NCBI GenBank assembly: GCA_903851045.1
Contig: CAINNF010000019.1
Span: forward strand, 47,854 to 111,853
Length of the DNA: 64,000 nucleotides
Source: Candidatus Adlerbacteria bacterium
GTDB taxonomy: Bacteria > Patescibacteriota > Minisyncoccia > Phycocordibacterales > SBAW01
Direction: 5' to 3'
Positions 41,050 to 46,257 of the stretch are shown here, one piece after another. The translations under genes were made by a program, and so were the position numbers. Under the pieces are notes generated by a model that was not told the origin of the DNA, made no database searches, and was given only the letters and a program-made list of their open reading frames with translations. How positions within the stretch are numbered: the first letter of the stretch is position 1; each line of letters starts with the position of its first letter.

Positions 41050-42365
41050 TGGCGCGTCCCATCTCGTTCACGATAGAAAAACAACACCCCCGTTCGCAGG
41101 CGCGAGCGGGCGTTTTGAAGACGCGTCATGGCGAAGTGCGGACACCTGCGTTCGTTTCGGTCGCGACCAAGGCGACCGTAAAGGGGATCCAGCCGGATAT
41201 TCTGGCGGATCTTGGTGTGCAATGCATCATCGCCAACACGTATCATCTTTATCTTTCGCCGGGCGAAGACTTGGTTGAGAAGGCAGGCGGTGTCAACACG
41301 TTCATGCACTGGGATAAGCCATCGATGACCGACTCGGGCGGCTTCCAAGTCTTTTCGCTTGGAGAAGGGTATGGGAAGAAGGTGTCGAAGGTGGGGCCAG
41401 CCAGCGCAGGGTCGCCTTCTGCAGCCTCAGTGGCATCATCTTTCTCCGCTGGGCCCGTTGTTGACGCTACGAAAGACGATGCCACTGAGGCTGCTCGTAC
41501 CGCTGCCGTCTACGACGAAGACTTGGCGACCAGTCACGGCAAGCTCGCTATCGTCGATGAAGAAGGGGTGACCTTCACTTCGCACAACGATGGCACCTTG
41601 CATCGCTTCACACCGGAGCGCTCCATCGAGATACAGCACAAGCTCGGCGCGGACATCATCTACGCGTTCGACGAATGTACGTCGCCGACCGCTGAGTATG
41701 CCTACCAAAAAGAGGCCATGGATAGGACGCACCGATGGGCACTGCGCAGCCTCAAGGCGCATCGACAAAATATTTCAAAAAATGAGGCGCAGGCGCTCTA
41801 CGGCATCGTGCAGGGCGGCCGCTTTAAAGACTTGCGGCTGGAAAGCGCGAAGACGATCGCATCGATGGACTTTGACGGCTACGGTATCGGCGGGTCGTTC
41901 AGTAAAGATGATATCTTGGGCATACTCGACAAAGTGAACAGCGAACTCCCGCAGGAGAAGCCGCGTCACCTGTTGGGTATTGCCGAACCCGAAGATCTTT
42001 TCCTCGGTGTCGCTGCAGGTGCGGACACCTTCGACTGCGTACTCCCGACACGCAACGGCCGCACGGGCGGCGTCTACTCGCATGATGGGAAGTATATTAT
42101 CGAGAACGCACGCTTCAAAGACGACTTCTCGCCACTGGACCACGAATGTGGCTGCCCCGTTTGTTTATCGTATACAAAAGCATACATTCACCACCTCTTC
42201 CGCACCAAAGAGATGCTCGGCATGATCCTCCTCTCCCAACACAACATCTACTTCTTGGCGAACCTCACCGAAAGAATCCGCCAATCCATCTTAGATGATC
42301 AGTTCGAACACTTTCGCGACTCTTTTTTGGGTAGGTACTCTACTAACGCAGTCAGACTACGTTAG
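41049..42365 (+). CDS. tgt: Queuine tRNA-ribosyltransferase with ~50-aa low-complexity insertion; C-terminus extended by an embedded REP
   Basis: Conserved Tgt blocks ([38 protein letters not shown], Zn site CGCPVCLSY...H). Ala/Ser-rich insertion between VFSL and EEGVTF; the last residues STNAVRLR are the translation of REP-B. Confidence 0.85.
41425..41490 (-). repeat. Intragenic 66-nt palindromic element inside tgt (20-nt inverted arms plus 26-nt core), minus orientation
   Basis: Reverse complement reads CCTCAGTGGCATCGTCTTTC-GTAGCGTCAACAACGGGCCCAGCGGA-GAAAGATGATGCCACTGAGG. The core is 26/26 identical to uvrB 45385-45410. Confidence 0.8.
42344..42365. repeat. REP family B palindrome CTAACGCAGTCAGACTACGTTAG (overlaps the tgt stop)
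   Basis: 11-bp arms with one mismatch; further copies at 42807, 42846 and, inverted, at 43563. Confidence 0.8.
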
Positions 42366-42430
42366 TTGCACAACACACGAAAGTGTTGTATATGTTTCAT
42401 AGACTTATCCCTAAAAAGTGAGGACGCAAC

Positions 42431-42754
42431 GTGTCTGAGTCCGAATCCTTTCAGATGACATTACTGTCTCCCGAGGCTGATACTGCGCTGAAGGAGCTTT
42501 TAAAGGAGTACCCTGGGGTGCTCTTGCAACACCGGTGTTGCCTGCTTTTTGCAAATGCCGCAGAGCCGGCAAGGATTCTTATGCAAGATCATCCTCCGGA
42601 AGTGCGCGAAGCGATCGATTCTGTCATCGCTATCGCGAAGCGATACGCACGGGCGGTGCGCGAGACTGCCACACTGCCGCCGCAGACGCAAGCGACCATC
42701 TTGGTCGGACTGCTCCTGAATCGTAGCGCACTCATGCTTATCAATGAAGAGTAG
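42431..42754 (+). CDS. Hypothetical protein (107 aa)
   Basis: GTG start with GTGAGGA RBS; followed by a terminator. Confidence 0.45.
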   Translation: MSESESFQMTLLSPEADTALKELLKEYPGVLLQHRCCLLFANAAEPARILMQDHPPEVREAIDSVIAIAKRYARAVRETATLPPQTQATILVGLLLNRSALMLINEE

Positions 42755-42762
42755 AGGCGATG

Positions 42763-42795
42763 GGGCGGCGCGCAGCGATGCAGCCGCCCTTTTTC
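42763..42795 (+). terminator. Rho-independent terminator (GGGCGGC...GCCGCCC plus TTTTT)
   Basis: Its 3' 25 nt gcagccgccctttttcatatttg are repeated exactly at 43923-43947. Confidence 0.7.
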
Positions 42796-43905: not shown

Positions 43906-43910
43906 GTGCG

Positions 43911-43940
43911 GGGGCGGTTGTTACGGCAGCCGCCCTTTTT
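43911..43940 (+). terminator. Rho-independent terminator sharing its 3' 25 nt with the 42763 terminator
   Basis: GGGCGGttgttacggcaGCCGCCC plus TTTTT. Confidence 0.7.
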
Positions 43941-43965
43941 CATATTTGGCCATATCTGGTAGAGT

Positions 43966-46257
43966 GTGTCTATGAAGCTGACTTTAGAGTCGAACTATGC
44001 GCCGGCGGGGGATCAGCCTAAGGCCATTGCCGAGCTTATCGCGGGGATCGAGCGCGGGGAGCGACACCAGACGCTGCTTGGCGTGACCGGGTCGGGCAAG
44101 ACCTTCACGGGTGCTAATGTTATCGCGCATGTCGGCAAGCCGACGCTCGTCATCGCGCACAACAAGACTCTGGCGGCGCAGCTCGCGCAGGAGTATCGCG
44201 AATTCTTTCCCAACAACGCGGTGCATTATTTCGTCTCATACTACGACTACTATCAGCCAGAGGCGTACATCCCGACGTCGGACACCTACATCGAGAAGGA
44301 GGCACAGATCAACGAGGAGATAGACCGACTGCGCCACGCATCGACTCAAGCTCTGTTGTCGCGCGAGGATGTGATCATCGTCGCGTCGGTGTCGTGCATC
44401 TATGCGCTTGGTTCGCCCGAAGAGTATCGCAAGGTACACCTCGAACTACGACCGGGGATGCAGAAGAATCGTGCCGAACTTGTCCGCGAACTGATTAGTG
44501 TCTACTTCGAGCGCACCAACGCGGACCTCACGCCTGGCACCTTTCGTGCGCTCGGGAACGCGGTGGAGATCATGCCGACCGGCGAGCGTATTTTGTATCG
44601 AGTGGAATTTCTTGGTGAGGTTGTCGACCGCGTCCGTGTCATCGACGCGACTACACGTGCAGAAGTTGGAGAGATCGGCGGTGCCGCGACGGCCGGCGGC
44701 GCGTTGGATTTCGCAGCGTCCCCGCGAAGACCTGCAGCGGAGAAATTCAATGCGCCGCCGGCCGCTCCTGATTCCTTGTTTTTGTTCCCTGCAAAGCACT
44801 ATGTGACACCGGAGGATGAGCGCGGGCGGGCGATCGAGGATATCAAGATCGAACTGAAGGAACAGCTCGCACGATTCGAGCGCGCGGGCAAGATGCTCGA
44901 GGCGGAGCGATTGAAACGTCGCACCAACCACGACCTCGCGCTTATCCGCGAGATGGGCTACTGCAGCGGTATCGAGAACTACTCGCGTCACTTCGACGGA
45001 CGCAAGCCAGGACAACCGCCGTTCTCGCTGCTTGAATATTTTCCTCACACGTCGGATGGTAAGCCCGACTTTCTCACCATCATCGACGAGTCTCATGTGA
45101 CGGTGCCGCAGATCGGCGGCATGTACGCAGGCGACCGCGCACGCAAGGAAAATCTTATCGACTTCGGCTTTCGCTTGCCTTCAGCTATCGACAATCGTCC
45201 GCTGAAGTTCGACGAGTTCGAGGCGCGCGTCGGCCAGGTCATCTACACCTCTGCGACGCCGGGCGTCTATGAACGTGAGAAGAGCGGGAAGAATGTCATC
45301 GAACAGATCATCCGCCCGACTGGGTTGGTAGACCCTGAAATTATTGTACGACCAGTCACAGGAGGCACAGTGGCGATAGCTTCTGTAGCGTCAACAACGG
45401 GCCCAGCGGAAGAAGGTGTCGCCACTGTGCCTCCACACAACAAGGCCAGCGAGGAAGTGCTTTCCTCCGCTGCAGGTCATCACGGGGACGCTGCAGAAAG
45501 CACTTACTCGCCGGCCACCACCGGTTTAGGGCAAGTCCAAGATTTTCTCGAAGAAGCAGACAAGGTTATCGCGCATGGTGGCCGAATTTTGGTGACGACA
45601 CTCACCAAGAAGATGGCAGAAGATCTGTCCGAGTATTTGAAGGATCGAAAAATTAAGGCAGCGTATTTGCATAGCGATGTCGAGACCTTGGAGCGCATTA
45701 CGACGCTCACCGAGCTGCGCAAAGGCTCGTTCGATGTGCTCGTGGGCGTCAATCTCCTGCGCGAAGGGCTCGACCTGCCCGAAGTGGAGTTGGTCGCGAT
45801 ACTCGATGCCGACAAAGAGGGCTTCCTCCGCTCCGAGACGTCGCTTATCCAGACGATTGGCCGTGCCGCGCGCAACGTCGACGGACGTGTCATCCTCTAC
45901 GCCGACATACTGACGAACTCGCTTACGAAGGCGATAAGCGAGACCAACCGTCGTCGCGATATCCAACTTGCGTACAACGCCGAGCACGGCATCACGCCAA
46001 TGACGATCAAGAAGAGCATCAAAGATATCACCGAAGACCTGCGAAGCGAGCGCGGCAGGGCGGTCAACTCGCTCCTCCTCGTCGACGCCGACCTGTATCG
46101 CAAGGACCCAAAGAAGTTCATCGCCGAAAAGCGCCAGCAGATGTCGGACGCGGTGCGCGACCTCGACTTCGAGACCGCCGCGCTCATCCGCGACGAGATC
46201 TACACCCTCACCGGCAGCGGCGTGAAGCCCAAGCGCCCCAAAAAGCAGCAACGATAA
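43966..46257 (+). CDS. uvrB: Excinuclease ABC subunit B with two low-complexity insertions
   Basis: N-terminal YAPAGDQPKAI, Walker A GVTGSGKTFT, helicase motifs, C-terminal UVR domain (DFETAALIRDEIYTL). 763 aa versus ~670 typical; insertions at about aa 225-290 and 455-525. Confidence 0.9.
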   Translation: MSMKLTLESNYAPAGDQPKAIAELIAGIERGERHQTLLGVTGSGKTFTGANVIAHVGKPTLVIAHNKTLAAQLAQEYREFFPNNAVHYFVSYYDYYQPEAYIPTSDTYIEKEAQINEEIDRLRHASTQALLSREDVIIVASVSCIYALGSPEEYRKVHLELRPGMQKNRAELVRELISVYFERTNADLTPGTFRALGNAVEIMPTGERILYRVEFLGEVVDRVRVIDATTRAEVGEIGGAATAGGALDFAASPRRPAAEKFNAPPAAPDSLFLFPAKHYVTPEDERGRAIEDIKIELKEQLARFERAGKMLEAERLKRRTNHDLALIREMGYCSGIENYSRHFDGRKPGQPPFSLLEYFPHTSDGKPDFLTIIDESHVTVPQIGGMYAGDRARKENLIDFGFRLPSAIDNRPLKFDEFEARVGQVIYTSATPGVYEREKSGKNVIEQIIRPTGLVDPEIIVRPVTGGTVAIASVASTTGPAEEGVATVPPHNKASEEVLSSAAGHHGDAAESTYSPATTGLGQVQDFLEEADKVIAHGGRILVTTLTKKMAEDLSEYLKDRKIKAAYLHSDVETLERITTLTELRKGSFDVLVGVNLLREGLDLPEVELVAILDADKEGFLRSETSLIQTIGRAARNVDGRVILYADILTNSLTKAISETNRRRDIQLAYNAEHGITPMTIKKSIKDITEDLRSERGRAVNSLLLVDADLYRKDPKKFIAEKRQQMSDAVRDLDFETAALIRDEIYTLTGSGVKPKRPKKQQR
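45366..45429 (+). repeat. Intragenic 64-nt palindromic element inside uvrB (19-nt inverted arms plus the same 26-nt core), plus orientation
   Basis: CACAGTGGCGATAGCTTCT-GTAGCGTCAACAACGGGCCCAGCGGA-AGAAGGTGTCGCCACTGTG; the arms differ from the tgt copy but stay self-complementary. Confidence 0.8.

Follow-up and report, generated by a model that had tools for sequence, protein, structure and literature searches.

The locus analysed here raises the question of how an identical string of 26 nucleotides (nt), flanked by inverted arms, comes to lie within the reading frames of two unrelated housekeeping genes, tgt (queuine tRNA-ribosyltransferase) and uvrB, in a 64,000-nt stretch of the Candidatus Adlerbacteria contig CAINNF010000019.1 (the whole of this stretch is called the window below). 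A preliminary description, made from the letters of the window, read the two sites as members of a palindromic DNA family that colonises coding sequence and is tolerated in the form of loop insertions, and our analysis supports this reading, while confirming the underlying observation in part. The window contains five such elements (E1 to E5, Table 1), located in tgt, uvrB and uvrC, and about 20 more are present in contigs of related Candidatus Adlerbacteria. Together they probably form a non-autonomous, selfish family of palindromic DNA elements of Candidatus Adlerbacteria (Patescibacteria, or candidate phyla radiation, CPR), which is translated with its host genes and tolerated there. As judged from the sequences compared, material has been transferred between loci, and copies have been gained, have decayed and have been replaced at fixed loop sites.

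Hairpin elements in the window

The shared 26-mer, GTAGCGTCAACAACGGGCCCAGCGGA, occurs exactly twice in the window (minus strand at 41445-41470, plus strand at 45385-45410), in both cases within an open reading frame (ORF) and in a segment without counterpart in solved structures, and chance matches to it amounted to 0.00 in 100 dinucleotide-preserving shuffles. The inverted arms reported around both copies are present, although not with the 19-20 nt first assigned to them: they are 24 nt long, with 23/24 (tgt, E1) and 22/24 (uvrB, E2) complementary positions. Three further elements had been missed, two of them in uvrB (E3 and E4) and one in uvrC (E5); E4 starts 9 nt downstream of E2, with its core in the opposite orientation. 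In a model-free hairpin scan, E1-E5 are the top five hairpins of the entire 64 kb, all five being confined to 8.4 kb. Folded as single-stranded DNA they reach z-scores between -6.0 and -8.3, with none of 200 shuffles folding equally well, and this includes the two copies with which the analysis began. A covariance model, run with its filters off, returned E1-E5 as the only strong matches in the window, the next-best match being an unrelated palindrome pair at 42807-42868 (27 bits). Rfam gave nothing at the elements at gathering thresholds, and no match in 41300-49900 at E <= 1. An assembly artefact is excluded, since two independent public assemblies of the organism (ENA and Logan) agree with the window at every base (100% identity across 21.3 and 13.1 kb).

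Table 1. Positions and properties of the host genes, of the five elements and of the transposase gene in their vicinity.
Feature	Position	Strand	Arms	Core	Covariance-model score (bits)	DNA fold z	Details
tgt	41049..42365	+					queuine tRNA-ribosyltransferase, 438 aa; PF01702
E1 (tgt)	41421..41494	+	24 nt, 23/24 paired	type A, TCCGCTGGGCCCGTTGTTGACGCTAC, 41445-41470	70.1	-7.3	forward-read; codon phase 0
Y1/IS200-like (RAYT-like) transposase gene	42879-43562						Pfam Y1_Tnp; NCBIfam
uvrB	43966..46257	+					763 aa; insert-free relatives ~672-685 aa
E3 (uvrB site 1)	44690..44764	-	23 nt, 21/23 paired	type B, TCCGCTGCAGGTCTTCGCGGGGACGCTGC on the - strand, 44713-44741	83.3	-6.6	reverse-read; peptide ...GGALDF-AASPRRPAAE-KFNAPPAA
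E2 (uvrB site 2)	45361..45434	-	24 nt, 22/24 paired	type A, identical to E1 core, 45385-45410	64.7	-6.6	reverse-read
E4 (uvrB site 2)	45444..45516	+	21 nt, 19/21 paired	type B, TCCGCTGCAGGTCATCACGGGGACGCTGC, 45466-45494	80.1	-6.0	peptide ASEEVLS-SAAGHHGDAAE-STYSPA
uvrC	49300..50661	+					Pfam; open frame from 49150, public gene call starts 49300
E5 (uvrC)	49720..49787	+	21 nt, perfect	type A, TCCGCTGGGACCGTTCTTTACGCTGC, 49741-49766	70.5	-8.3	peptide AAAGKVDF-SAGTVLYAA-KSTLPAA

Two details of the preliminary description did not hold. The segment at 41374-41424, taken for a second, degenerate copy in tgt, forms no hairpin (z = +0.27, with 122/200 shuffles folding as well) and is also missed by the covariance model with filters off. 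The 14-mer GGAAGAAGGTGTCG does occur in both genes (41374-41387 and 45408-45421), but does not abut the tgt copy, since it lies 57 nt upstream of the core there, where it encodes GKKVSK, a peptide common to Tgt orthologues. In uvrB the same 14-mer is made up of the E2 right arm and the edge of the core, and a copy with one mismatch is found at 63451-63464 (minus strand). That it is shared exactly looks unlikely by chance; in part, it is a low-complexity purine run.

Family anatomy and covariation

In order to describe the family, we took 16 copies, found in the window as well as in relatives, oriented them so that the core reads TCCGCTG...ACGCTRC and aligned them over 77 columns, with arms of about 18-24 nt; from this alignment we built the covariance model, which was then searched over the window and the loci of relatives. 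Each copy is a hairpin of 50-82 bp, in which an apical core is held between two arms of 12-24 bp. The core is conserved on one strand as TCCGCTG-N(8-15)-ACGCTRC and comes in a 26-nt type A (TCCGCTGGGNCCGTTNTTNACGCTRC) and a 29-nt type B (TCCGCTGCAGNNCNNCNNGGGGACGCTGC); a type C (GAGCGTCTACCYTAGCGAG, on the opposite strand) is found in other genomes and has the edge motifs GNAGCGTC...YAGCGRR in common with the others. Conservation extends over the core and about five inner stem bases, which carry a short motif, (C/T)TT(T/C)(C/T) ... (G/A)(A/G)AA(G/A), and the outer arm columns vary most.

Nevertheless, the variable arms remain paired, in near-perfect stems without bulges. Standard pairs are formed by 90.9% of the stem cells, compared with 58% after column shuffling and with 40-47% in controls whose partner column is shifted by 1-3 positions; changes on both sides were seen in 21/22 stem pairs, and neither the observed pairing nor the covariation score was matched in any of 500 shuffles. 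Arm subfamilies also exist: the arm ..GCAAAGTCG..CTTTC is present in E5 (uvrC) and in the relatives' loci L004 (tgt), L006 (uvrB) and L083 (uvrB), and the recurrence of such subfamilies at unrelated loci means that each element brings its arms along, the local flank not being their source.

Two further regularities were considered for the core and rejected. For the type-B core, a conserved inner stem was considered; its bases pair in E4 and E3, but L003 breaks the pairing and there is no covariation. The similarity of the type-A centre to an inverted type-B centre is weak and inconsistent, the forward alignment working better.

Stem mismatches

A census of mismatches in 25 hairpins (478 stem pairs) shows that 95% of the pairs are Watson-Crick. 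Read on the mRNA strand, the transition-type mismatches are 12 A·C and 7 G·U, which is not significant, and this absence of wobble enrichment leaves no sign of selection acting on an mRNA hairpin. When the strand reading TCCGCTG... is taken instead, there are 17 A·C against 2 G·T (binomial p = 0.0007, over 12 elements). Within the window the asymmetry reverses with core orientation (E1 and E4 versus E2 and E3), and it thus follows neither transcription nor the chromosome strand. The tolerated G·T wobbles lie on the complementary strand, 5'-GNAGCGTC...YAGCGGA-3', which hints that this is the strand that folds, or is exposed, as single-stranded DNA. The preliminary description had noted that the arms differ between copies and yet stay complementary, which is borne out by the strong covariation, and had attributed this to selection for a hairpin; given a mismatch spectrum without sign of selection on the mRNA, the pairing may instead reflect a requirement at the DNA level or copying from arm to arm.

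Distribution among relatives

The loci of relatives were sampled from the contigs of eight UvrB homologues and from two loci found in a metagenome scan (numbered with an L below). The same family is found in related Candidatus Adlerbacteria contigs, where the host genes, taken over all contigs, are six housekeeping genes: tgt, uvrA, uvrB, uvrC, pheT and pnp. Family hairpins in uvrA were found in L128 and L131. The UvrB homologues that are 70-83% identical bear annotations to Adlerbacteria, Paceibacterota or Patescibacteria. The type-A core is rare, since an exact scan of 185,579 species-representative genomes matched a single other organism, the Candidatus Adlerbacteria metagenome-assembled genome JAYVXZ01, which carries two tandem elements in pheT, one element at the uvrB site used in the window and a type-B element at the tgt site; its type-A cores in pheT and uvrB differ at 1/26 positions. 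The metagenome scan, with the pattern GCTGCAGN8GGGGACGCTGC (too permissive in high-GC genomes), gave at least 120 stretches, and among the matches listed only L018 and L083 have flanking arms. No match was found in the viral contigs scanned.

Whenever two elements are adjacent, their cores have opposite orientations (6/6 cases), which may simply be because direct repeats are deleted. Intergenic hairpins mostly have loops of 4-13 nt and resemble terminators, the exception being a palindrome pair with a 30-nt loop (42808-42867) beside the transposase gene discussed below.

Gain, decay and replacement at fixed sites

Aligning the host proteins with their orthologues, as proposed at the outset, shows that insertion sites are empty in some close relatives and occupied by different family members in others. 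At UvrB site 2 (RPVTG^GQV), 67/120 of the closest homologues have no insert and 42/120 have at least 13 extra residues, comprising many different hairpin-type peptides, with two or three in tandem in some homologues. At UvrB site 1, where the window has E3, the three closest relatives (L006, 83%; L005, 79%; and L004) have no insert and more distant genomes have other family members; the empty site of the closest relatives marks E3 as a lineage-specific gain. In uvrC, L005 lacks an element at the site and L007 and L131 have different ones there, and the tgt site is filled in most relatives. Decay is seen as well: the tgt copy of L005 has decayed, and the uvrB copy of L131 has lost one arm and the core through an in-frame deletion.

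Replacement can be followed in two pairs of orthologous sites. At uvrB site 2, the inserts of L004 and L005 have equal length, with a type-A and a type-B core, respectively; in their arms, the inner 13 bp are identical on the right and one base off on the left, and the outer 7 bp differ and are compensated. In uvrC, L007 and L131 are identical over the flank (40/40) and the core (18/18), with 6/17 arm pairs differing on both sides. Inside one genome the reverse is seen, in that E1 and E2 have the same core and arms that agree at 15/24 positions each. Taken together, these comparisons show what would be a diverse and old population of elements, which repeatedly occupies, loses and re-occupies a few tolerated sites.

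Other inserts at the same hot spots belong to unrelated in-frame families, in the uvrC of L131 (18715-20142) and in eight UvrB homologues (P0003, P0014, P0066, P0071, P0078, P0082, P0087 and P0091). Examples are ..TTP(L/V)SLDEPFQ(K/E)GS.. (a hairpin with a 10-bp stem, in L131 uvrC), ..GPSLTQGAKGRSL.. and ..TSFSDLQDKETKKRGKT... Several hairpin families appear to share these landing pads. The UvrA proteins of relatives also carry a variable insert, of 10 to ~70 residues, after ...RLRPEA(L/M)xV(F/Y)(L/V) (L005, 12291-15092; L007, 6280-9033; L083, 633-3257), and the UvrA of the window has none.

Origin of the palindromes

These observations can be set against a different history, in which the palindromes were made locally by template switching (quasi-palindrome correction) and the cores were spread by short-patch gene conversion, no transposable element being involved. 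Stems that are 95% Watson-Crick and not enriched in mRNA-strand wobbles would fit arm-to-arm copying, as would orthologous elements that keep their arms while the core type changes; additionally, both arms of the tgt copy of L083 contain the core-edge motif TTTCCTCCGCTGG in palindromised form, so that inverted copying does happen here, and for Nematomorpha mitochondria arm conversion has been put forward to account for their coding palindromes (Mikhailov et al. 2019, PMC6649704). We regard this history as unlikely nonetheless. The arms of E3 and E5, when examined as possible inverted copies of the local flank, have no similarity to the flanks of orthologues with empty sites; one arm subfamily (..GCAAAGTCG..CTTTC) is found in different genes and genomes; complete elements have been gained at sites empty in the closest relatives; and gene conversion between loci sharing core edges of ~12 nt is mechanistically hard.

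It could also be argued that the hairpins are functional cis-elements of the mRNA, either RNase III sites setting the levels of UvrABC and Tgt or structures that make the ribosome pause at domain boundaries and so help the protein to fold during translation. With 18-24 bp, perfect stems have the length that RNase III requires, the UvrB inserts stand at domain junctions and the same genes are hit recurrently across genomes. We consider this quite improbable, since forward-read copies have 12 A·C against 2 G·U on the mRNA strand with no overall enrichment in wobbles, both core orientations occur at one site, 67/120 close UvrB homologues do without the insert, copies decay, and Rfam returned no match even at the relaxed threshold given above.

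Probable translation as extra loop residues

Outside the inserts, Tgt and UvrB are collinear with solved structures in HMMER alignments. Residues 106-168 of Tgt have no counterpart in solved Tgt and stand in for 4 residues of the Zymomonas mobilis enzyme (Z. mobilis Tgt, 4hsh_A). In UvrB, insert 1 (residues 233-270, nt 44662-44775) takes the place of 7 residues of 9gy7_E, and insert 2 (residues 467-521, nt 45364-45528) lies between consecutive residues of the KG|GQIDD junction; from the architecture of UvrB, we take these positions to be where domain 2 ends and, respectively, the linker that precedes domain 3. For UvrB, AlphaFold predicts that the insertion loops are disordered: in a model calculated with 66 homologues, residues 240-265 and 472-517 have a predicted local distance difference test (pLDDT) score below 50 and no secondary structure, and the helicase domains beside them are modelled. 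The insert segments of UvrB are thus the low-confidence, structure-free parts of the model, in line with the view of them as loop insertions.

The first base of the core is at codon position 1 in 15/15 copies, at seven insertion sites and in both orientations, and, with this single codon phase, third codon positions pair with third positions. In terms of Mikhailov et al. the elements are in 'phase 3'. No other phase restricts a conserved protein as much, and this agrees with arms coding for loop residues that are under no constraint. Stop codons in the frame used are absent from all 16 copies, and flipping would add stops to 7/11 forward-read copies; reverse-read type-B cores have centre variants that avoid TGA TGA, which would arise if a forward-read variant were flipped. 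Because every copy keeps the frame, lacks stops and shares a single codon phase, we infer that the elements are translated as extra loop residues.

These properties bear on a reading in which the segments are removed by RNA excision and religation, or bypassed by the ribosome (as with the byp elements of Magnusiomyces mitochondria), so that the protein is canonical. The hairpins are certainly very stable, and GC-rich coding hairpins are bypassed in Magnusiomyces capitatus (cited in PMC6649704). A skipped segment, however, would need no control of frame or stops, and here all copies are a multiple of three in their context, reverse-read cores steer clear of stops and even partly deleted or decayed copies are still in-frame, which makes removal or bypass very improbable.

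The preliminary description had placed the peptide VASTTGPAE in both genes, on opposite strands. Tgt, however, does not contain it: the same DNA read in the two orientations gives unrelated peptides, SAGPVVDAT in Tgt and VASTTGPAE in UvrB, and, both orientations being in use, conservation is at the level of the nucleotides and not of the peptide. The idea that the inserts are selected flexible linkers shared by descent, their palindromy incidental, might draw on peptides rich in Ala, Ser, Gly and Pro, on their predicted disorder and on a tgt site filled in most relatives, but is already contradicted by these orientation data and runs against the nucleotide conservation of the core, arms that covary base pair by base pair and presence or absence varying among close relatives, and is scarcely credible.

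Candidate mechanism and the Y1 transposase module

If the elements are mobile DNA, as we consider probable, their mobility would proceed through the folded single-stranded form of one specific strand, recognised by the sequence of the apex and the shape of the stem. Such is the working mode of HUH/Y1 transposases of the IS200/IS605-RAYT type (RAYT, REP-associated tyrosine transposase), a class of single-strand transposases that excise precisely and leave no target duplication, and a candidate gene of this kind lies between tgt and uvrB. The perfection of the arms may be kept because imperfect copies stop moving, and/or by template switching from arm to arm. It is possible, albeit doubtful, that the family represents an undescribed class of mobile DNA: a single hairpin, recognised by its apex and stem shape and not by its ends, that moves as one folded strand and cycles, by gain, decay and replacement, through a few landing pads in essential genes of CPR bacteria, with arms that may be kept perfect by the requirements of mobility or by arm-to-arm copying.

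The Y1 gene scores 29.5 bits both on Pfam Y1_Tnp (PF01797, above the cut-off of 23) and on the NCBIfam model 'REP-associated tyrosine transposase' (where the cut-off, 80, is by no means reached), and its family is common among Patescibacteria, in many cases on short contigs. The gene is part of a 1.6-kb module between tgt and uvrB (42341-43588), which the syntenic relative L005 does not have and which also includes a 107-aa ORF (42431-42754) without Pfam match. Four copies of a REP-like palindrome, AACGYAGTCWGACTRCGTT, surround the gene (at 42345, 42809, 42848 and 43566). One instance of this REP-like palindrome (42341-42367) overlaps the 3' end of tgt, supplying its last 8 codons and the stop; the Tgt proteins of relatives end in ...GTYKIK* or ...QTYKVR*, differently from that of the window, and the mobile palindrome has thus remodelled the C-terminus.

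The link between the Y1 gene and the elements is weak. Proximity to the gene was considered as the cause of the clustering of the elements and rejected, as the hairpins of relatives occupy the same genes with no Y1 gene nearby.

Several observations weigh against the view of a mobile, translated element family and have to be kept together. The palindrome AACGYAGTCWGACTRCGTT differs from the element and is found only around the Y1 gene (42345-43584), with no copy elsewhere in the window or in the relatives' loci, and in relatives, whose hairpins occupy the same genes, the 20 kb examined contain no Y1 gene; transposition, excision and the enzyme performing them are all putative. Simple copy-and-paste of an entire hairpin is inadequate, given that E1 and E2 have identical cores (26/26) and arms that agree in only 15/24 positions each. 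The 15-nt flanks of 28 copies contain no target-site duplication and no common target motif. In the ~217 kb examined, every core-bearing copy is inside a long ORF and none is intergenic, a result that is weakly informative given a coding density of ~90% and sampling centred on uvrB. The strand asymmetry amounts to 19 mismatches and is a lead, and the case for translation is argued from frame and stop statistics.

Comparison with known systems

The closest functional analogue is the Rickettsia palindromic elements (RPEs), which are likewise in-frame palindromic repeats in unrelated conserved genes, several per genome, translated and tolerated outside the core fold, their repeat identity being lost with age (Ogata et al. 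2000 Science 290:347; Ogata et al. 2002 Genome Res; reviewed in PMC2229807 and PMC10969869). RPEs are 105-146 bp long, conserved along their length and in their peptide, and also found in intergenic regions (PMC2229807, PMC10969869). In contrast, the elements described here measure 50-82 bp, have only the apical core conserved and arms that vary and yet pair, are read in both orientations to give different peptides and reside in a CPR bacterium; published RPE descriptions thus set them apart, and membership is not supported.

The preliminary description had also called the family MITE- or REP-like. [quoted passage not shown] REPs are extragenic, 20-40 bp long, with conserved stems whose foot is marked by a GTAG or CGTC tag. 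REPs, together with the bacterial interspersed mosaic elements (BIMEs) and REPINs, are reportedly mobilised as single-stranded DNA by RAYT, a Y1 transposase (Nunvar 2010; Bertels & Rainey 2011; Ton-Hoang 2012). Shared with these systems are the hairpin repeats, a RAYT-like gene with its own flanking palindromes in the window, neighbouring copies in opposite orientation as in BIMEs and REPINs (6/6 here) and, in some cores, a start GTAGCGTC that contains the GTAG and CGTC tags. However, the copies are intragenic, their stems are variable, GTAGCGTC occurs in some cores only and stands at the apex, and the palindrome flanking the Y1 gene, which would be the cognate one, is the different sequence AACGYAGTCWGACTRCGTT (for REP, BIME and REPIN elements with RAYT, or Y1 HUH, transposases, see Di Nocera 2013, PMC3733652).

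Resemblance to MITEs (Correia, ERIC, RUP, Nezha) lies in being small, non-autonomous and folded into one long stem-loop. Here, however, the outer arms are the most variable part and there is no target-site duplication, whereas in MITEs, which are mostly intergenic, the terminal inverted repeats are conserved across a family and target-site duplications are present. In-frame fusions of bacterial MITEs to ORFs do occur on occasion (PMC2229807).

The coding palindromes of Nematomorpha mitochondria are also near-perfect inverted repeats in translated genes, with dynamic gain and loss; their arms encode conserved parts of the protein, they have no core shared between loci and long repeats avoid 'phase 3', unlike the elements described here, which are pure insertions with a shared core, all of them in phase 3 (Mikhailov et al. 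2019, PMC6649704). With the attC sites of integrons the elements have in common variable stems and, putatively here, recognition by structure rather than sequence and a single strand that folds and is used. In attC sites the stem base is marked by conserved R and L boxes, the centre varies and some bases are extrahelical, and the sites flank gene cassettes next to an integrase, whereas the elements have near-perfect stems, conservation at the apex and an intragenic location. The absence of target duplication and the strand-specific asymmetry would fit palindrome-associated transposable element (PATE)-like derivatives of IS200/IS605, but each element is a single symmetric hairpin, and PATE-like elements, whose transposition is strand-specific, goes through single-stranded DNA and leaves the target unduplicated, differ between their left and right ends, with a subterminal hairpin and guide and cleavage tetranucleotides at either one. 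Translational bypass elements of the byp type, which need be neither in-frame nor stop-free and have take-off and landing codons, differ from the copies described here, which are in-frame, stop-free and in one phase.

Implications

In-frame selfish palindromes in essential genes have been regarded almost as a peculiarity of Rickettsia, and the present family suggests that they recur in reduced genomes. Full-text searches on CPR, Parcubacteria and Patescibacteria yielded no report of such elements, and, if the family does represent the undescribed class of mobile DNA considered above, it would be the first RPE-like system of coding palindromes outside the Rickettsiales, with a different architecture. 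The elements offer one explanation for conserved proteins that are 'too long' in CPR bacteria, which matters for annotation, phylogenomic alignments and structure prediction. Additionally, a conserved apex, free but compensated arms, a single codon phase and an oriented mismatch asymmetry provide a handle on how such elements may be recognised by their structure and maintained.

Other features of the window

Rfam matches at gathering level were obtained at 54321-54445 (LOOT RNA, RF03000, 78 bits, full length) and at 52035-52107 (tRNA). An ORF of 1171 aa (14701-18216) contains a periodic repeat of 126 nt that encodes Y-T-S-x-D-G-G-x-T-W (Asp-box/BNR-like by eye), followed by about four repeats of 294-297 nt. 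A perfect 24-nt palindrome, GGCCCCGTCGACGTCGACGGGGCC, is found at 9671-9694 and 10862-10885, with 1.2 kb between the two copies and conserved flanks. Finally, the ORF at 19143-19862 is bracketed by a 23-nt inverted repeat, AGCAAGGCGACGCCTTGCTAAAA (19118-19140), and its complement (19949-19971), the two being 96% complementary.

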